From positions 1 to 52,062 of the IMG/VR virus record IMGVR_UViG_3300017963_000331: a stretch of DNA of 52,062 nucleotides; one strand, given 5' to 3'. Numbering within the stretch: position 1 is the first letter of the stretch; each line of letters starts with the position of its first letter. Positions 2,604 through 34,293 of the stretch are shown here, piece by piece. Position numbers and translations under genes: made by a program. The notes under the pieces were generated by a model that did no database searches, was not told where the DNA came from, and was given only the letters and a program-made list of their open reading frames with translations. Source of the DNA: a virus (Duplodnaviria > Caudoviricetes).

Positions 2604-2846
2604 ATGAAGTTCATTGCGTTAGGAACGGTTGCATCGTGGTTGCTACTCGGGAACACCGTCACCTCGACGACGGGGGTTCAGTACACCGCTCTCGGGCTCC
2701 TGGCCTTTGTGGTGATCTGGTTCTGCATGAAGGGGTTCCCGGCGATCCTCAAGAGCCAGAAGGACGAGCGAGAGCGGCTCGTGGGCGTGATCGAGAAGCT
2801 TGAGCAGGAGATTCGGCTCTTGAACGAGCGGAACCGCAGGGAATAG
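2604..2846 (+). CDS. Holin-like small membrane protein
   Basis: 80 aa with hydrophobic segment(s) followed by a charged coiled-coil C-terminus. Last gene of the late arm. Confidence 0.5.
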   Translation: MKFIALGTVASWLLLGNTVTSTTGVQYTALGLLAFVVIWFCMKGFPAILKSQKDERERLVGVIEKLEQEIRLLNERNRRE

Positions 2847-2946: not shown

Positions 2947-3813
2947 CTATTGTACCCTCTTATCCTGTTTCCCTCCGAGGAGGGGTAGATCCTCGACGTC
3001 GCCGGAGAGTTCGCGGATCCAGGTCGGCGGAACCGTTTTCACCGGATCGAGATTGTTGTCTGCCGCGATCTCGTCGCAGTACCCCGAGCTGACCTCGACC
3101 AAGTCGCAGTTGAATTGTTCTGCGATGGAAACCCGCATGGTCGTACCAGTGCCGCCGAATGGATCGAGGACATAACCCCCAACTGGAGTTGACAGTCGTA
3201 GGCAACGCCGCACGAGGTCTTCATTAAGCTGCGTTCGGTGCCATTTACGGCGCTGACGACTATTACCGACAACGCGGGTGAAGTCGAGAAAGCTTTCAAT
3301 GTCCCGCGAGGCGTCGCCCACGAAGACGTCTCCGGGAACACGTCCCCGAGAATCTGCCCGTTTATCACCCATTCGCTGACGCTCGCTCTCAACGCGGATA
3401 GCATCTGGATCGTGATGGGCGCCTTTGTGACGGAGGCGCCAGATGGGCCGCATGTTATTACCGAGATCAGTTTGGCGGTGTTGTCCGAAGGTGAAGTATT
3501 GCGCACAGAACTTGTCCTCCAAGTCTGGGTGAACGGCTTTGAGTGTAGAAATAATTCGAGCAACCGGCCCGATCCATTTCACGTTGAACGAGAACCAGAC
3601 GGTGTCGGCTCTCGCGACAAACTTGGCCAGCCAAGCAGACAGCAGCTCGACGTACTTCCATTCAGGAAGCTTGTCGTCATACTCGTCGTACTTCAAGCCG
3701 ATGTTGTCAGGTGGGTCAGCGAAGATCGTGTGCCACCTCGACCCGAACGCAGGCACGCGCGTGCGGTCAAGGAAGTCGAGGCAGTTGTCGTGTGTGAGCT
3801 GGTAGGTGAGCAT
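2947..3813 (-). CDS. DNA N6-adenine/N4-cytosine methyltransferase (beta class)
   Basis: N-terminal motif IV variant FADPPDNIG and C-terminal SAM-binding VLDPFGGTGTT. Confidence 0.85.
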   Translation of the reverse strand: MLTYQLTHDNCLDFLDRTRVPAFGSRWHTIFADPPDNIGLKYDEYDDKLPEWKYVELLSAWLAKFVARADTVWFSFNVKWIGPVARIISTLKAVHPDLEDKFCAQYFTFGQHRQTDLGNNMRPIWRLRHKGAHHDPDAIRVESERQRMGDKRADSRGRVPGDVFVGDASRDIESFLDFTRVVGNSRQRRKWHRTQLNEDLVRRCLRLSTPVGGYVLDPFGGTGTTMRVSIAEQFNCDLVEVSSGYCDEIAADNNLDPVKTVPPTWIRELSGDVEDLPLLGGKQDKRVQ

Positions 3814-14646: not shown

Positions 14647-15447
14647 TTATGCCCAAGGCGGCTTACCAGCGGCTTGCGCCGGAGGGGCTGCCTGCTGAGG
14701 CGGGGCTGCGGGGGGCGCAGCTTGGGCGGGAGGGGCGGCAGCCGGAGGGGCTGCGGCGGGAGGCGCGGCTGCCGGTGGTGCAGCAGGGGGCGCCTGTTGG
14801 GCAGGAGGAGCCGCAGGAGGTGCCATCTGGGGCGGGGCGGCTGCCGGGGGTGTCACCGGGGGTGCAACGGGCGGAGCCGCAGCAGGGGCGACAGGAGGGG
14901 CTGTAGGAGGCTGGTAGGCGGCTGCCGGTGGTGCGGCTGCCGGAGGGGCATAGGCTGCCGGGGCTGCCGGAGCCACGGGCGCCGCAGGAGCGGCGGGCGG
15001 AGCCGGGACCGGGGGAGCGGCGAGCATCTTGAGGATGACCGGATCTTGCGGGTGATAGAACCCGTTGATATCGTTCTGGTCCTGCTTCACCTTCACGCTG
15101 ACGTACATCCAACGCCCGATGAGATCGTTGGGGTGCTTGATCTCCGGCAACTCGGTGGCGTAGAGGATCGCGGACAGCTCGCGTCGAGCGATCTTGACAG
15201 CCTTCTCATTCGGGTTGCGAAGGTTCAGCATGATCCAGAGCTTGCGATCCTTGAACGGGATGCCCGTGGTGTGTTCGAGTATCGACACCTGAATCCAGAG
15301 ATACTCGCCGTCCTGCTTCTTCGTGGGTCGCACGTCGACCTCTTCGATCTGCACCGGATACTTGCCGGGCGTGATCGGCTCGAAACCCTTTGCGGGCTCC
15401 TCTTCCTCGCGGTTGTAGCCATTCGGGCCGAAAATGTCATCTAACAT
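14647..15447 (-). CDS. DUF669-type single-stranded DNA-binding protein with a long Pro/Ala tail
   Basis: FEPITPGKY.V.I, RKLWIMLNLRNPNEKAVKIARREL and QNDING; low-complexity PA tail ending GKPPWA. Located beside the AAA gene. Confidence 0.8.
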   Translation of the reverse strand: MLDDIFGPNGYNREEEEPAKGFEPITPGKYPVQIEEVDVRPTKKQDGEYLWIQVSILEHTTGIPFKDRKLWIMLNLRNPNEKAVKIARRELSAILYATELPEIKHPNDLIGRWMYVSVKVKQDQNDINGFYHPQDPVILKMLAAPPVPAPPAAPAAPVAPAAPAAYAPPAAAPPAAAYQPPTAPPVAPAAAPPVAPPVTPPAAAPPQMAPPAAPPAQQAPPAAPPAAAPPAAAPPAAAPPAQAAPPAAPPQQAAPPAQAAGKPPWA

Positions 15448-15512: not shown

Positions 15513-15974
15513 CTAGTCCTCCGTGGCAAACATCACAGCAGCCGCTTTCTGCGACAAACCGGCATCACGCAGCTCTTGCTTAGTGAACACTAAATCAGAG
15601 TCGAGGTCTGAATTGCTCGTCTGCTTGGCCAGCCAATGAGTAACGTCTCGTGCGGAGTCTAGGATTCCTGACAGGTGCAACCTAACCTCACCAGCAGACA
15701 CGACCATCTGCGCTGCATAAGCCTTCCACCCGGCAGCTTCGGTCTTGGACGCAGAGAGTTCTGTTTCCACGAGGCGTAGCGCGTTGTACGCTTTCTCCAT
15801 TCTCTCGTTTCGATTGCTGATAATGTCGTCGCGTTCCGCTACCATGAGGTTCAGCTTGTGGACTTCTCGCTGCGAGTCGGCAAGCTTTTTGTTCGTGTCG
15901 ATCACCTCGCCGTTCGTGGTGAGCCCGACCATATCGAGGAGCATCAGAAACAAGTCGAAGATCGTCTTCATCAC
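15513..15974 (-). CDS. Hypothetical coiled-coil protein
   Basis: 153 aa with a heptad-like central region; overlaps the upstream stop. Confidence 0.65.
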   Translation of the reverse strand: MMKTIFDLFLMLLDMVGLTTNGEVIDTNKKLADSQREVHKLNLMVAERDDIISNRNERMEKAYNALRLVETELSASKTEAAGWKAYAAQMVVSAGEVRLHLSGILDSARDVTHWLAKQTSNSDLDSDLVFTKQELRDAGLSQKAAAVMFATED

Positions 15975-16753
15975 TGCACGTTCCTTGCTGCTTGGACATG
16001 TTGACAGAACGCGTTCCAGTCGAGAGGAATCTCGTACGGGATACGCCCGAAGGGACCACGCCCGCCTCCAGGATGGGACGGCTTCTTCTGCGTGTAGAGG
16101 TAGCGCCCGCCCGTAACGTCGGTGCCGCGCTTGGTCTTCTTCCCGAAGCCCGCATCCTCGCTCTGGAGAATGACCTTGGAGTTAGCAAACAAGATCACGT
16201 CAGCCCAAGCGTAGAGCTGCGTTGCTGCCTTGTGGTGAATGCTCCAGATGAAGGAGTCGTAGCTGCCGACGATGGGATCGTCGATCCTCTTGATTGTGAC
16301 GTGACCAATCAAGATCGAGGCGCAGTTGCGATCACGCCGAAGGACGTCAATCCAGTCAGTGAGGCGGCGCCAATACTTGAGGGTTTCAAGGTAGCCCTTG
16401 CCGTAGCCGTCAAGCACTTTCTCGATGCTATCCTTGTTGTAGTCGTTGCACACCTGTTGATGCAGCAGGGGCTCAAGCGTCGTCGTCGAGTCGATCACGA
16501 TTGTGCCGAAGTCGTGTTGCTGATTGTAGAGCGCTTCGAGCCAGCCGACAGTCTCGTTATACGAGCTGACCGGCTTCTCAAGCTTGGCAACGGGGATATC
16601 GTCGATCCCCTCTTCCCCGTGTACCGGGATGAAGAACGGGCGATCAGATGCGGCAGCGAAGGACGACTTGCCGATCTTCTCCACGCCAAGCAGGATAATT
16701 CTCGGTGGACGTACCACCGCTTCGGTGGTGATCGTCGAAAGATCGAATGCCAT
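15971..16753 (-). CDS. Sak4-like AAA_24 ATPase (ssDNA annealing/recombination)
   Basis: GVEKIGKS Walker A, IVIDS Walker B, GYGKGY, LIGH and WADVILFAN. Confidence 0.88.
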   Translation of the reverse strand: MAFDLSTITTEAVVRPPRIILLGVEKIGKSSFAAASDRPFFIPVHGEEGIDDIPVAKLEKPVSSYNETVGWLEALYNQQHDFGTIVIDSTTTLEPLLHQQVCNDYNKDSIEKVLDGYGKGYLETLKYWRRLTDWIDVLRRDRNCASILIGHVTIKRIDDPIVGSYDSFIWSIHHKAATQLYAWADVILFANSKVILQSEDAGFGKKTKRGTDVTGGRYLYTQKKPSHPGGGRGPFGRIPYEIPLDWNAFCQHVQAARNVQ

Positions 16754-16761
16754 TGATTTGC

Positions 16762-16843
16762 TCCAGAAGGTAAGGGGAAGAAACGAGGGCGGGCCCTTAC
16801 TCCCGCCCTCGCTGGTCCCTCCGGTAAGGGTGAGGAACCTTGA
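16762..16843 (-). ncRNA. Structured 5' leader: two hairpins with complementary loops, the second terminator-like
   Basis: Minus strand GGTTCCTC-acccttaccg-GAGGGACC, then CGAGGGCGGG-agtaaggg-CCCGCCCTCG followed by TTTCTT. Confidence 0.65.
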
Positions 16844-16849
16844 ATCAAC

Positions 16850-16878
16850 ATGATAACCGGAACTCCACGCAGTGTCAA
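16850..16878 (-). promoter_or_regulatory. Sigma70-type promoter of the replication operon
   Basis: Minus strand TTGACA (16878-16873), 17 nt spacer, TATCAT (16855-16850). Confidence 0.8.
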
Positions 16879-17273
16879 TTCTGCGGACTGTCGACCGACA
16901 TGAACCCGGAAACGTCGTGGTATTTCGCGAACTCCGCCATACCTGCGGCGTCGCTCATTGCATCCTTTCTGCCACTCTTGCCGGTGTAGGGTCCGCAATC
17001 ACAAGCGGAGCCCTCAGCGTTGATGATCCACCAGCCGTCAGGGCGGAGGGTGATGTACGGGAACCACGACGGATAGCGCCCGGTGAGTTCCGCCCACCTC
17101 TCGGCGCACGCCTTGTTCTGACGCTTGCCTCGCACCTCTGGCGGTTCTGGTCGCCCGTTCTGGAGGAAGTGCAGCTCTGCCTGTTGTCGCCCCGCCTCTT
17201 CTGCCTTGTCGCGTTGGCGGTTCTCCGCGCTTCTTATTCGGTTCCTGGTCATTCTCTTTCCGTCTCCTCGCAA
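16875..17273 (-). CDS. Hypothetical protein
   Basis: ORF in the packed minus-strand run. True start may be the downstream ATG (MTRNR). Confidence 0.6.
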   Translation of the reverse strand: MRGDGKRMTRNRIRSAENRQRDKAEEAGRQQAELHFLQNGRPEPPEVRGKRQNKACAERWAELTGRYPSWFPYITLRPDGWWIINAEGSACDCGPYTGKSGRKDAMSDAAGMAEFAKYHDVSGFMSVDSPQN

Positions 17274-17488
17274 TGCTTACGGGTTTCTTCTACCTTGTCC
17301 CAATCAATAGCAGGCTCGACCTTGGGCAGCGCTAGCTTCTGCTGTAGCCACGTCTTGAACCGTGCGTGATCCTCCGGCGTGCGACTCTTGAGCCCCTGCG
17401 GTGGGGCGTAGCAGTCGCAATACTCCATGTCGTCTCGATCTTCACGCGGACAGATGCCGCGCTTCGTGCAGAGTTGACACTCTAACAT
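17249..17488 (-). CDS. Small Cys-rich hypothetical protein
   Basis: CQLC..C..CDC N-terminus; overlaps neighbours. Confidence 0.6.
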   Translation of the reverse strand: MLECQLCTKRGICPREDRDDMEYCDCYAPPQGLKSRTPEDHARFKTWLQQKLALPKVEPAIDWDKVEETRKHCEETERE

Positions 17489-18086: not shown

Positions 18087-18560
18087 CTACGGTTCCTCTG
18101 CGATAATATGGCGTGATGTAAGAAGTTCATCCGTGAGACGATCAGCAAGGCGCGCGGCGTCCTGCGCAACCTCGCGCAGGAGCCTGATTGACTTGTGGAC
18201 CCGTTCCGGGTCGATCTGTTCCCACCAGTCGGAGCCGTCGAAGTCGGCGAAGTCGGGCGCCGCCTCGTCAGTCCATTCGCTGGTTAGACGGTCGCGCGCC
18301 TCTTCGGCTCCCGCCACGATAGCCGCGATCCCATTCCCGGCGCTTGGGAGGATGAAAGACACGATGGTTTTGTTGCGCACGAGCGCGAGGCGCCGCCCGT
18401 TGAGGTCGCTAAAATCGTAGACCTCATATTGCCCGGTTTTGACTTGGTTCATGAGTCGCCCACGCTCCCACCCATCAATGGGTCGATCTTCGGCACTGTT
18501 TGCGTGCCGGTAGTGTGTTGCGATCTCAAGCGCTGCTAGCTGGTCTTTCTGGCTAGTCAT
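18087..18560 (-). CDS. Hypothetical early protein
   Basis: 157 aa; ATGA overlap with the radical SAM gene. Confidence 0.65.
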   Translation of the reverse strand: MTSQKDQLAALEIATHYRHANSAEDRPIDGWERGRLMNQVKTGQYEVYDFSDLNGRRLALVRNKTIVSFILPSAGNGIAAIVAGAEEARDRLTSEWTDEAAPDFADFDGSDWWEQIDPERVHKSIRLLREVAQDAARLADRLTDELLTSRHIIAEEP

Positions 18561-19243
18561 GCCGTCACCCTCTCGCTAATGTCACGGGAACAGTAAGAAT
18601 CAAAATATCCGCTGTCGCTGTCGGGCATTTCCCACCCGTCGATAATGTGCCCCAGCTTGACCGCGTCATCACAACCGCACGCGTAGACGTCGCCGTTAGG
18701 CTTGCAAATTGGACCGTCACAAGGGCAACGGTAGTCGTCGCCTTTCTCGATGCCTAGAACAGTCGTGGCGCGTCCGTTCGCCATAGGTTCATGGTGTTCC
18801 GTTGTGTTGCGAATGCCGACGCGCGAGGGCTCCGATATCTCGCGGTAGCGGTTGTGCTCCAGTCGCACGCGCTCCGCCTCTTCTCGCCATTGCCATTCTA
18901 CCTCTTCGTCAATCGGATCATGGTAGCAATCAAGGGAGAGGTCGGCAGCAATCGCCCCGCACTTGGCCAGCCCGAACAGCATACGCGTGCGCTCCGCGTG
19001 CGTCCCGTTCGTGATTACCATAACGCCGCAAGCTTCAATCCCCGGCGCGGACATAGCAAGCAGAAGGAACTTTTCAAACTGTTTGTGTAGCGTCGGTTCT
19101 CCTCCGCCTAGCGTTATGCTCATATCAGACGCCGCGACTGCTGCGCGGAACACGCGCAGACTCATATCCTCACCTTCCGCAGTGCATGAATAGCAGCAGT
19201 GCTCACAAGACATGTTGCAACGGGTCGTGATCTGAATATACAT
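18557..19243 (-). CDS. Radical SAM protein with a C-terminal SPASM/twitch-like Cys cluster
   Basis: ITTRCNMSCEHCC (CxxxCxxC), GGGEPTLH, ITNG and C-terminal CPC...PNGDVYACGC. Likely start ATG 19243 after GAGGTG. Confidence 0.9.
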   Translation of the reverse strand: MYIQITTRCNMSCEHCCYSCTAEGEDMSLRVFRAAVAASDMSITLGGGEPTLHKQFEKFLLLAMSAPGIEACGVMVITNGTHAERTRMLFGLAKCGAIAADLSLDCYHDPIDEEVEWQWREEAERVRLEHNRYREISEPSRVGIRNTTEHHEPMANGRATTVLGIEKGDDYRCPCDGPICKPNGDVYACGCDDAVKLGHIIDGWEMPDSDSGYFDSYCSRDISERVTA

Positions 19244-19244
19244 T

Positions 19245-19451
19245 CTACACCTCGTCTTTCTGTTCAATGGTCACGAATTCGTCAAGCAGTACCGGCGCCG
19301 CATCGTTGGCGCCCACAACCTGGACCCATAGCCCCCCTTGTTCGTCTAGTTCAAGCTTGATTGACGCCGGGAACTTGCCGAGATAGTCAATCGTGATGCG
19401 CCTATCGGGCTCCTCAAGCGCGACATAGACCGGCTTGCGATGCGCCATCAT
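19245..19451 (-). CDS. Hypothetical early protein
   Basis: 68 aa packed ORF. Confidence 0.55.
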   Translation of the reverse strand: MMAHRKPVYVALEEPDRRITIDYLGKFPASIKLELDEQGGLWVQVVGANDAAPVLLDEFVTIEQKDEV

Positions 19452-22349: not shown

Positions 22350-22583
22350 CTAGATGCACGCGTGGAGAATGTCGTCAAGGGTATCGGATACGTGCAGAAG
22401 AGAGACGTGGGCGATTCCATCGGTTCCAAGTGTCACGAGGGGCGACACGTCGTAGCGCCCCTCCGGTTCCAGGATAACGCGACGAACGTAGTCCGACACC
22501 TCATGAACCGTGAGGGGGCGCGGGAAGGTGAGGGGGAAAGATTGGGTGTCCGTGTCCAGCGTAGCGTTTTGAGTGGCGATCAT
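22350..22583 (-). CDS. First gene of the early arm, hypothetical
   Basis: ATG 22583 after the GAGGTG SD. Confidence 0.6.
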   Translation of the reverse strand: MIATQNATLDTDTQSFPLTFPRPLTVHEVSDYVRRVILEPEGRYDVSPLVTLGTDGIAHVSLLHVSDTLDDILHACI

Positions 22584-22627
22584 TCTAGCACCTCGTGAGG
22601 TTGTGGGAGAGAATCGGGCTGTATTCA

Positions 22628-22656
22628 AGCATACCTTGCAATTGGCACGCGTGCCA
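22628..22656 (-). promoter_or_regulatory. Candidate early promoter overlapped by a 14-bp palindrome
   Basis: Minus-strand TATGCT -10; perfect palindrome TGGCACGCGTGCCA at 22643-22656. Confidence 0.45.
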
Positions 22657-22809
22657 GTCTAAAACCGGATAGGGTGATTGTCCTGGTTATGACGCGCGGT
22701 GATGACGCTTGTGCTGGCCAGCTATGCTGGCGCGGTGGTGCGGGTTGTAGTGAGGTTCGACTGGGTAAACCTGAACGATGGTAGCGATTGTGAGCCCGCA
22801 GGACCGTTA

Positions 22810-23000
22810 TGACCGGTCATGATGGGGTTGTAGCGGTTGTAGGGAGAGGGTTGTAGTGGTTGTGCGTGGTAGGCGTAGCCCGTGTGGTAGGTGGTGTTGT
22901 TGTGTGGGTTGTAGTGTTGTGTTGTTGTTGCAATCGTTATGACTGGTTGTGAGGGTTGTGTGGTGTGGTGGTGTGTGTGGTGCGTGCGTGGGGGTGAGGG
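22810..23000. repeat. G/T-skewed low-complexity tract
   Basis: The plus strand is dominated by GTTGT/GTGGT/GTGTG units. Confidence 0.8.
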
Positions 23001-23041
23001 TCGGGGCTAGCCCACCCCCTCCCCCTTGAATCCCCCTGCGC

Positions 23042-23082
23042 GTAGTCATATTGACGACAGTGTGTAGTCATATTGACTACAG
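23042..23082. repeat. Tandem pair of palindromic sites (22-bp period)
   Basis: GTAGTCATATTGACGAC (23042-58) and GTAGTCATATTGACTAC (23064-80). Confidence 0.8.
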
Positions 23083-23149
23083 GTTAGAGTGTACGGTGTT
23101 GTGATCGTTATAGATGGACATAGGTTTTGTGTTGGTTGTGAGGATTATA

Positions 23150-23500
23150 GGGGGGCCCCATGAGATTGTGGTCAACCATTCCTTACGGTGCTCCGGTCAG
23201 GTTGGGGTAGGGTAGCCCGCCTCCGCCCCGTAACGTCAAAACCTTTGAGAATAACGACTTAGGGGCAGATTACGGCTTTCCGGCATATCCCCTAAGACAG
23301 AAACCTGGAGAAATGAAGAAATGAGAGATAAGAAGGGGGCCCCACCGTAACGCCGTAATCTCGCCGGGGGAGAGGGAGAGGGAGTCTATAAGATGATATA
23401 TAAATATATATATATTATATACTTACGTCTATTCACCCTTTGGTCGCACCCCTCATAGGTGGCAATTTAATCTACGGCGTCCCCCCCGTCAAAACAACGC
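23150..23500. other. Candidate replication origin and/or packaging region
   Basis: Non-coding; five TTACGG/CCGTAA hexamers and an almost pure A/T tract at 23387-23425 in a GC-rich genome. Confidence 0.45.
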
Positions 23501-23648
23501 ATTTTGACCACCGTACTGCCGGAATCTCAGGGCGTTGGTTCGAGCCCGATGCCAGAAGTGTGGCGTTTGAACCGTGAACCCCCTGTTTATACGGTGCGCT
23601 CCCGCGCTGGCAATTATCATAGATTATTGGCCAGCAGGGGAAGGTTTA

Positions 23649-23657
23649 TGGTATGAT
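23649..23657 (+). promoter_or_regulatory. Extended -10 promoter for the rightward arm
   Basis: TGG-TATGAT upstream of the groES leader, which has a GGAGG SD. Confidence 0.55.
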
Positions 23658-23710
23658 GTTGGTTTGAAGAGTGTGTTGTTTGTTTCCCCTATCACTGTTT
23701 GGAGGTTGTT

Positions 23711-24010
23711 ATGTTGGTTCCCAGAAGAGATTCCGTGTTGGTCGAAATGCCAGAAGCGCCCGCCATGTCACCCGGAGGCATCGCGCTGCCGATGAACGTC
23801 AAACTCGACGAACCGGGCAAGCCCCGCGCCGGAACCGTCGTGGCGTTCGGTCGCATGACCGAAGATTACCGCAAGGGCGACAAGGTCTTCTTCACGTTCG
23901 GCTACGAAGTCGTTGAGAACGACAAGACCTACCTCGTCGTCAAGGAAGACGATATCATCGCGAAGTTCCCGCAGAAGACAGCGGCTCCCGCCCTGACTCC
24001 GCGCAAGTAG
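23711..24010 (+). CDS. groES: Co-chaperonin GroES (cpn10)
   Basis: LVPRRDSVLV, SPGGIALP mobile loop, GTVVAFG, GDKVFF and YLVVKEDDIIA. ATG 23711 after GGAGG. Confidence 0.9.
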   Translation: MLVPRRDSVLVEMPEAPAMSPGGIALPMNVKLDEPGKPRAGTVVAFGRMTEDYRKGDKVFFTFGYEVVENDKTYLVVKEDDIIAKFPQKTAAPALTPRK

Positions 24011-25227: not shown

Positions 25228-25409
25228 TGAGGTACGCCCTTACGGTTGTGCTCCACACGGTCGACGACAAAGGCGAGGGCATCGACGTCCCCGCCGACGA
25301 ACTCGCCGTTCAAGTGGAGCGTTTACTCAATGACGAATGGATAGACGACGGCAACGACGTCGATGTGCAGATCGTCGAGGCTGAAGTCGAGGCGAGGTCT
25401 GACTTGTGA
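25227..25409 (+). CDS. Small acidic hypothetical protein
   Basis: ATG overlaps the upstream stop (TAATG); GGAGG SD. Confidence 0.6.
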   Translation: MRYALTVVLHTVDDKGEGIDVPADELAVQVERLLNDEWIDDGNDVDVQIVEAEVEARSDL

Positions 25410-34251: not shown

Positions 34252-34293
34252 AGTCGGGGGCGGGTTTCTCTTCCCCGCCCCCGGCTACTTTTT
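34252..34293 (+). terminator. Intrinsic terminator
   Basis: AGTCGGGGGCGGG/CCCGCCCCCGGCT stem followed by ACTTTTT. Confidence 0.8.

Follow-up and report, generated by a model that had tools for sequence, protein, structure and literature searches.

Promoter-proximal terminators are found in phage operons, and in lambda they include PR'-tR' (6S RNA) and nutR-tR1, which lies before cII-O-P. Here we describe a locus of related layout in IMGVR_UViG_3300017963_000331 (Duplodnaviria; Caudoviricetes), a complete virus record of 52,062 bp that is referred to below as the window. On its minus strand a 121-nucleotide (nt) gap, 16754-16874, precedes the gene for a Sak4-like ATPase that anneals single-stranded DNA, the first gene of a recombination/replication module. 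We lean towards reading this gap as an internal promoter followed by a leader with a leaky intrinsic terminator, i.e. an attenuator, in front of the Sak4/SSB/helicase/primase module. As in the lambda attenuators, a strong promoter or incoming early transcription would meet a hairpin-plus-U element before a gene module, with a short RNA as the default product. Unlike in lambda, the U tract is weak, and neither a Q or N homologue nor a qut- or nut-like element was identified (the boxA/boxB consensus was not searched). The leader also contains the heptamer CCCUUAC twice and its exact complement GUAAGGG in the loop of the terminator-like hairpin, which invites comparison with regulatory RNAs that act by pairing.

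Several RNAs of this kind have been described. In P4, CI RNA pairs with seqA upstream and seqC downstream and thereby stops expression of the replication genes, and in Gifsy-1 a single promoter gives rise to the terminated small RNA IsrK and to a read-through mRNA on which IsrK acts; both are described in PMC4825925, as is the Q antiterminator. The c4 RNA of P1 is part of one operon with its targets icd and ant (PMC8198154), the motifs listed in PMC2864571 include c4 antisense RNA and c4-a1b1, and RNase P is reported to process both CI and c4 (PMC5499578). In the OxyS-fhlA pair, exposed nucleotides of a terminator loop kiss a translation initiation region, and a further contact is made through another loop (PMC11979758).

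With P1/P7 c4 (RF01695) and P4 CI, as far as these sources describe them, the present leader shares the layout only: a target copy, a complementary leader segment and a second target near the ribosome-binding site (RBS) lie on one transcript. It differs from both in that the complementary segment is a single 7-nt stretch in a plain terminator loop and not a processed RNase P substrate, in that RF01695 is not matched, in that the leader arrangement is not conserved in relatives, and in that no lysogeny or immunity genes were seen. The c4 RNAs contain a'/b' and a2/b2 elements. To IsrK and OxyS there is no sequence or Rfam relation, and here both partners are on the same short RNA. The ColE1 RNAs I and II are antisense transcripts of opposite strands with several loops, and they kiss through 7-nt loop segments. 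The present leader resembles them in having 7-nt complementary loop segments that would pair nearly the whole loop, and differs in offering a single loop pair on one strand. A literature search that covered articles without their supplements, and that is no proof of absence, found no description of such a leader upstream of Sak4 genes.

Promoter and terminator-like hairpin ahead of the Sak4 module

The minus-strand gene run of the phage spans from about 22.4 kb down to 2.9 kb and is tightly packed, with stop and start codons that often overlap. The 121-nt gap is the one sizeable gap within it. At its upstream edge lies a correctly oriented promoter, TTGACA-17-TATCAT, that agrees with the sigma-70 consensus at 11 of 12 positions and is the sole match of this quality in the 52 kb on both strands; such a match is present somewhere in 14 of 100 dinucleotide shuffles of the genome. 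The pattern TTGACA-17-TAnnnT is found 5' of Sak4 and at the end of the upstream gene in all three of the closest relatives (L053, L054 and L059, introduced below) and in one of the other 90 loci examined (L087), and the -35 element TTGACAC is invariant in the alignment of the four sequences. From these comparisons a real sigma-70-type promoter ahead of the Sak4 module is well supported. Judging from its position, the transcription start site (TSS) would lie at about 16841-16845. A leader peptide was considered and ruled out, the sole ATG in the leader being one that overlaps the -10 hexamer.

Downstream of the promoter, the predicted folds show two hairpins joined by a 2-nt linker (Table 1). 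The 65-nt stretch 16843-16779 has a predicted energy of -37.4 kcal/mol (z = -4.84), and none of 200 shuffles is as stable. With a predicted stability of -21.7 kcal/mol, hairpin 2 belongs to the genome's five strongest perfect hairpins, each of which is intergenic and downstream of a gene. Its tail, UUUCUUCC, has five T in eight positions, the most among the perfect hairpins of at least 8 bp in the window. Canonical hairpin-plus-U terminators are used elsewhere in this phage, an example being the bidirectional one at 2873-2902. From its strength rank, its intergenic site, its T-rich tail and these canonical terminators we infer that hairpin 2 is an intrinsic terminator of moderate strength. The promoter, hairpin 1 with its single G-U pair and CCCUUAC loop, and hairpin 2 with its GUAAGGG loop, its UUUCUU tail and a second CCCUUAC close to a GGAG had all been pointed out in a first-pass annotation made from the letters of the DNA, and each of them is present.

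Table 1. Features of the leader and the two genes that flank it, in window coordinates.
Feature	Position	Strand	Details
Upstream open reading frame (ORF)	16875-17273	-	132 aa with TTG as start codon; about 125 aa with the ATG at residue 8
-35 TTGACA	16878-16873	-	Overlaps the stop codon TGA (16877-16875) of the 132-aa ORF
-10 TATCAT	16855-16850	-	After a 17-nt spacer
Hairpin 1	16814-16839	-	8 bp with one U-G pair, GGUUCCUC (16839-16832) with GAGGGACC (16821-16814); 10-nt loop ACCCUUACCG
CCCUUAC copy 1	16824-16830	-	In the loop of hairpin 1; opening energy 0.36 kcal/mol
Hairpin 2	16784-16811	-	10 perfect bp (9 G-C), CGAGGGCGGG (16811-16802) with CCCGCCCUCG (16793-16784), 12 bp counting A-U and G-U; 8-nt loop AGUAAGGG; terminator-like
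GUAAGGG	16794-16800	-	Loop of hairpin 2; complementary to each CCCUUAC copy without mismatch; opening energy 0.00 kcal/mol
UUUCUU tract	16778-16783	-	Directly 3' of hairpin 2
CCCUUAC copy 2	16770-16776	-	Single-stranded in the prediction; 5 nt 5' of the Shine-Dalgarno sequence (SD)
SD GGAG	16761-16764	-	7 nt 5' of AUG (16753-16751)
Sak4-like ATPase gene	15971-16753	-	260 aa; phrog_124, E 3.6e-25

Because hairpin 2 is downstream of a consensus promoter, the leader reads as an attenuator, and the gap would form the internal transcription-control region of the minus-strand early arm. Transcription would begin at about 16843, from a near-consensus sigma-70-type promoter that overlaps the stop codon of the preceding gene, and the RNA would fold into the 5'-proximal hairpin 1 and then into the GC-rich hairpin 2 followed by UUUCUU. 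Acting as a leaky intrinsic terminator, hairpin 2 would also halt part of the transcription that comes from upstream. The default product would be a two-hairpin RNA of about 65 nt, and the read-through RNA would carry the SD and AUG of Sak4 and then the downstream genes, for a DUF669/SSB-like protein, an SF2 helicase (ResIII + Helicase_C) and a Prim-Pol/DUF3987 protein. The region would thus set the expression level of the recombination/replication module. Given the identity of these genes, 'replication operon', the name used in the first-pass annotation, is a fair one. Hairpin 1 and the upstream CCCUUAC probably originated by duplication of a pyrimidine-rich pre-SD tract that is also found in relatives, and the complementary match between terminator loop and both copies would be at most a lineage-specific fine-tuning and not the core mechanism.

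If this reading is true, the locus represents ordinary phage gene control, which is useful for annotating an uncultivated phage group and is unsurprising. Since the element is small (about 95 nt) and the promoter is close to the Escherichia coli consensus, reporter tests would be straightforward.

Leaders of related Sak4 loci

Sak4 loci were collected from IMG/VR, metagenomes and GTDB genomes. With the Sak4 protein as query, 31 loci were obtained from IMG/VR (best 54% identity), three from genomes and 25 from metagenomes; with a Sak4 alignment (A1) as query, 80 loci were kept per collection (best 58%). The 93 loci examined are those in which the match starts at Sak4 residue 1, and they comprise 3/31 IMG/VR, 2/3 genome and 7/25 metagenome loci of the protein query together with 72/80 and 9/80 loci of the A1 query. 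The loci that were dropped had a match that does not start from residue 1, were duplicates or were more distant. A DNA pattern consisting of the SD plus the start codon retrieved a further set of 87 stretches, the best with 57% identity in Sak4, and the promoter is present in none of them. A blastn search of the region against 50,697 phage records gave no match.

In 72 of the 93 loci at most 20 nt separate Sak4 from the preceding frame, according to a rough ORF-based measure, and most Sak4 relatives therefore have no leader. A homologous leader is found in the three closest relatives only: L053 (76% Sak4 identity), L054 (75%) and L059 (82%, partial gene). Synteny with the window is seen in L053 and L054, where a radical-SAM-like gene, a homologue of the upstream 132-aa ORF, the leader, Sak4 and an SSB-like gene follow in this order. 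Two DNA sequencing runs carry an identical 3.5-kb stretch with no differences from the window, and a third run contributes short pieces, none of which crosses the leader; the runs being identical, there are no population variants to compare.

All three relatives have a GC-rich stem, directly after which come a pyrimidine tract and the SD. In L059 this is a 13-bp GC-rich hairpin (z = -3.66) followed by ACUCUUUCA, in L053 a 10-bp hairpin followed by AUUCCUUCACC, and in L054 a closing stem GGCGGGG/CCCCGCC followed by AUUCUUUCACC. The pyrimidine tract of the relatives occupies the place where the window has the RBS-proximal CCCUUACC. The SSB-like gene of the window has a similar context, UUCUUUCCUCUGGAG, and YCTGGAG precedes its start too. 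In a MAFFT alignment of the four leaders, the -35 hexamer, the pyrimidine tract, the SD and the AUG are the only elements that line up. Hairpin 1, the heptamers or an analogous loop complement are present in none of the three homologous leaders, and RNAalifold on the four leaders yields no consensus pairs and no covariation. Conservation or covariation of the loop complementarity, the check that the first-pass annotation had proposed for its model, thus came out negative.

Within the window, the tract appears to have been copied. A 16-nt direct repeat, GUUCCUCACCCUUACC and GUUUCUUCCCCUUACC, has 81% identity at a spacing of 54, and each copy is followed by GGAG, directly or after 4 nt. All three mismatches fall outside the common CCCUUACC core. 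Hairpin 1 thus has the look of a second copy of the pre-SD tract with its GGAG, and both direct copies of CCCUUAC probably stem from one duplication. The leader of L054 (2440-2474) contains a different 10-nt direct repeat, GATAACGCCC, twice and 25 nt apart, and the leaders of this clade change fast through small duplications and deletions.

Several points weigh against the attenuator reading. The U tract of hairpin 2 is short and interrupted (UUUCUUCCCC), and a consensus terminator scan made no call at this hairpin, probably because its stem extension consumed a pair of U residues. The 10-bp hairpin of L053 (2441-2476) encloses the -10 hexamer, and its 5' arm falls inside the promoter spacer. 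RNA initiated at this promoter would therefore lack the hairpin, which could form only in transcripts that come from upstream, and L053 fits a terminator of upstream transcripts better than an attenuator of its own promoter. The TSS-proximal folds of L053 and L054 are no better than those of shuffled sequences (z = 0.35 and 0.37). Since none of the 1600 background hairpins described below is flanked by a loop complement on either side at once, the heptamers may be more than a side effect. Finally, the sigma-70 and intrinsic-terminator rules are assumed to apply to the host. With these points considered, we still judge the internal promoter with a leaky terminator to be somewhat probable. Of the leader gating the replication genes that the first-pass annotation had suggested, the structured, terminator-like element before the module stands, with an attenuator or an RNA of about 65 nt as reasonable forms of it; the riboswitch and the kissing in cis, discussed below, are not supported.

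Heptamer complementarity and the readings it could support

By our count CCCTTAC occurs four times in the 52 kb, three of these within 61 nt of the leader sequence. The other exact copy, at 25237, is intragenic, and no other intergenic site of the window has a copy of the motif; copies with one mismatch are at chance level (25 observed, 22.9 expected). In 36 of 100 genome shuffles some 7-mer occurs as w..rc(w)..w within 65 nt, where rc(w) is the reverse complement, and the heptamer triple alone is therefore not significant. A background of 1600 perfect hairpin instances (stem of at least 8 bp, loop of 7-10 nt, both strands) was drawn from 474 loci totalling 3.2 Mb. A 7-nt loop complement lies within 45 nt upstream in 13 of these and within 45 nt downstream in 13, and none has the complement of the same loop 7-mer on both sides, an arrangement that in the window is found for hairpin 2 only. 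If one duplication lies behind both copies, a single match between loop and flank is left, with a frequency of about 1 in 100 per hairpin. A search of IMG/VR for the tri-heptamer pattern returned 17 loci, by inspection none of them homologous. When the stem of hairpin 2 was searched with any loop in IMG/VR and the GTDB genomes, a GTAAGGG loop was found in none of the 238 matches listed; one of these, L471, has an unrelated CCCTTAC close by, and the stem pattern is too generic.

It is possible, but in our view unlikely, that the loop pairing is functional along the lines of P1 c4, P4 CI and OxyS, with GUAAGGG of the terminator loop pairing with the RBS-proximal CCCUUAC and tuning the translation of Sak4. 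Pairing in cis would create a pseudoknot of the H type with an S1 of 10 bp, an L1 of 1 nt (the A that stays unpaired at the loop's 5' side), an S2 of 7 bp and an L3 of 7 nt (UUUCUUC) that crosses S1, and in trans the abundant terminated RNA of about 65 nt would kiss the read-through mRNA, the pairing ending 5 nt before the SD. The copy of CCCUUAC in loop 1 would be a built-in competitor or a second contact. The complement is exact and takes up seven of the eight nucleotides of loop 2, reaching no further than the stem on either side. Each of the three heptamers is unpaired in the prediction and would cost 0.0-0.6 kcal/mol to open, and the 7-bp duplex is worth -9.0 kcal/mol. Also in favour are the background statistics given above, for both sides as well as for one given side, the position of the repeat mismatches outside the core, and the precedents of P4 CI and IsrK as described in PMC4825925.

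Against function stand the lack of the arrangement or of any analogue in the three homologous leaders, the lack of covariation and the lack of an Rfam C4 or IsrK match. In addition, the RBS copy is one version of a pyrimidine tract that is frequent in the clade and the upstream copy its duplicate, which leaves one coincidence to be explained, and seven base pairs are short. The pseudoknot with the RBS copy, which the first-pass annotation had proposed, would have a geometry that is canonical for the H type, and is weakened by the absence of the loop complementarity in all three relatives. Such a downstream pseudoknot forms after the U tract has been passed, and so it might affect translation and not termination. 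Kissing in trans, between the terminated short RNA and the read-through mRNA, is feasible. Overall, a lineage-specific function of the terminator loop, as a pseudoknot or by kissing in trans, seems doubtful to about the same degree or slightly more. Of the same low likelihood at best would be a self-contained RNA circuit in which the RNA of about 65 nt or the pseudoknot titrates translation of the Sak4 module, with the loop-1 copy as an internal decoy, as a minimal and independently evolved analogue of P1 c4 and P4 CI. Were the pairing functional, it would mean that a layout of the c4/CI type can arise when an RBS tract is simply duplicated and a terminator loop acquires a few changes, and the locus would be a compact, testable case of the birth of regulatory RNAs that act in cis and in trans.

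Control by a phage protein, with the heptamers or hairpin 1 as its sites, appears improbable. The sites could form a set of DNA operators that overlaps the transcribed leader, or hairpin 1 could be an RNA hairpin for an antiterminator in the style of lambda N/nut or Q, so that RNA polymerase passes hairpin 2 after early proteins have been made. The order of promoter, terminator and replication genes is that of nutR-tR1 and PR'-tR' in lambda, and the two direct copies are 54 bp apart, or about five helical turns; the centre-to-centre spacings of 30 and 24 bp, in contrast, are out of helical phase. The repeated GATAACGCCC in the same leader of L054 is what would be expected of phage-specific sites, but the window has no further intergenic copy of its own motif and no excess of one-mismatch copies. 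Hairpin 1, with its 8-bp stem and 10-nt loop, is unlike boxB. A candidate protein could be the product of the upstream ORF, whose N-terminus is rich in arginine (window, MTRNRIRSAENRQRDK...; L053 and L054, MRRRPRKNN...). This product may be a nucleic-acid-binding protein; to assign it an N-like role would be pure speculation. No usable family was found for this ORF in Pfam/PHROGs or the Atlas, and among the 25 ORFs scanned there is no antiterminator, repressor, helix-turn-helix or integrase family.

The first-pass annotation did not recognize the leader as a known Rfam family, and the scans bear this out. A cmscan of 16400-17300 (901 nt) with E up to 10 gave eight weak matches, all far below the gathering score, and the C4 family RF01695 and IsrK have no match in the leader, for RF01695 even at E up to 10. 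At the gathering score there are no matches in the whole window and none in the relatives. No known aptamer family was matched and no conserved ligand-binding core is present across the four leaders, and the ligand-sensing, riboswitch-like leader that had also been suggested has no support. The switch of the first-pass annotation, in which loop 2 would alternate within one molecule between loop 1 and the RBS copy and so decide termination, is hardly credible in spite of the complementarity and accessibility of the three sites, as a 7-bp loop-loop helix stacks coaxially and places the stem bases about 25 bp apart, for which the 2-nt linker is too short, making the kissing of loops 1 and 2 sterically implausible, as a pseudoknot with the upstream copy needs a 0-nt loop across a 7-bp stem, as the RBS copy is transcribed after the U tract and too late for termination, and as there is no conserved ligand pocket, no Rfam match and no conservation, the geometric points being inference from known rules of kissing complexes and RNA structure and not computation.

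Other pairings, neighbouring genes and repeats

Two further pairings involve the SD region. GUUCCGG (16857-16863, in the promoter spacer) can pair with CUGGAGC (16760-16766, which includes the SD) and would close a three-way junction around both hairpins, and GUUGAUU (16849-16843) can pair with AAUCAAU (16758-16752). Both 5' partners are probably upstream of the TSS, and the SD would therefore be masked only in RNA that reads through from upstream. Each pairing has 6-7 bp, which is within chance. The second one, between the 5' end and the SD-AUG spacer, was rejected as a candidate element: about two such 6-mer inverted pairs being expected in 135 nt by a rough estimate that was not computed, and its 5' partner is probably upstream of the TSS.

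The homologues of the upstream ORF are located at 1949-2431 in L053 and at 1850-2356 in L054, and a DGWW(I/V)(I/V)NA core is conserved. Further upstream, a radical-SAM-like protein with PHROG matches is encoded at 18557-19267 (-). On the plus strand the phage encodes a Cpn10/GroES-like co-chaperonin (23699-24010, PF00166, E 3e-11). No tRNAs were found in the window.

The nearest Sak4 relatives in cellular genomes have 48-53% identity and are found in metagenome-assembled genomes or genomes (L158-L166) labelled Planctomycetaceae, Phycisphaeraceae, Cerasicoccus, Lentisphaerae/Lentisphaeria, Victivallales, Cryomorphaceae and, in one case, uncultured bacterium. This gives a weak hint of a host in the Planctomycetes-Verrucomicrobia-Chlamydiae group, and distant relatives of the phage may be prophages of Planctomycetota, Lentisphaerota and Verrucomicrobiota.

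Between the minus- and plus-strand arms lies a stretch of 1.27 kb without a credible ORF (22430-23698). It contains many GT-rich direct repeats resembling GGTTGTAG at 22728-22981, a 19-nt repeat with TTGAC at 23042 and 23064, and an AT palindrome at 23400-23415, and it may be a replication origin and/or an early control region. Four spaced 7- to 9-mers resembling CCGGCAGCC occur at 14920-14970 (-) within the DUF669/SSB-like gene and are probably a coding repeat for a low-complexity protein tail.

The bidirectional terminator mentioned above sits between the convergent genes 2604-2846 (+) and 2947-3813 (-, N6/N4 DNA methylase). A further intergenic hairpin at 34255-34283 (+), CGGGGGCGGG-UUUCUCUUC-CCCGCCCCCG, is situated between two genes of the structural arm. 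Its stem is the same as that of hairpin 2 at nine of ten positions, and it is probably another terminator of this type.

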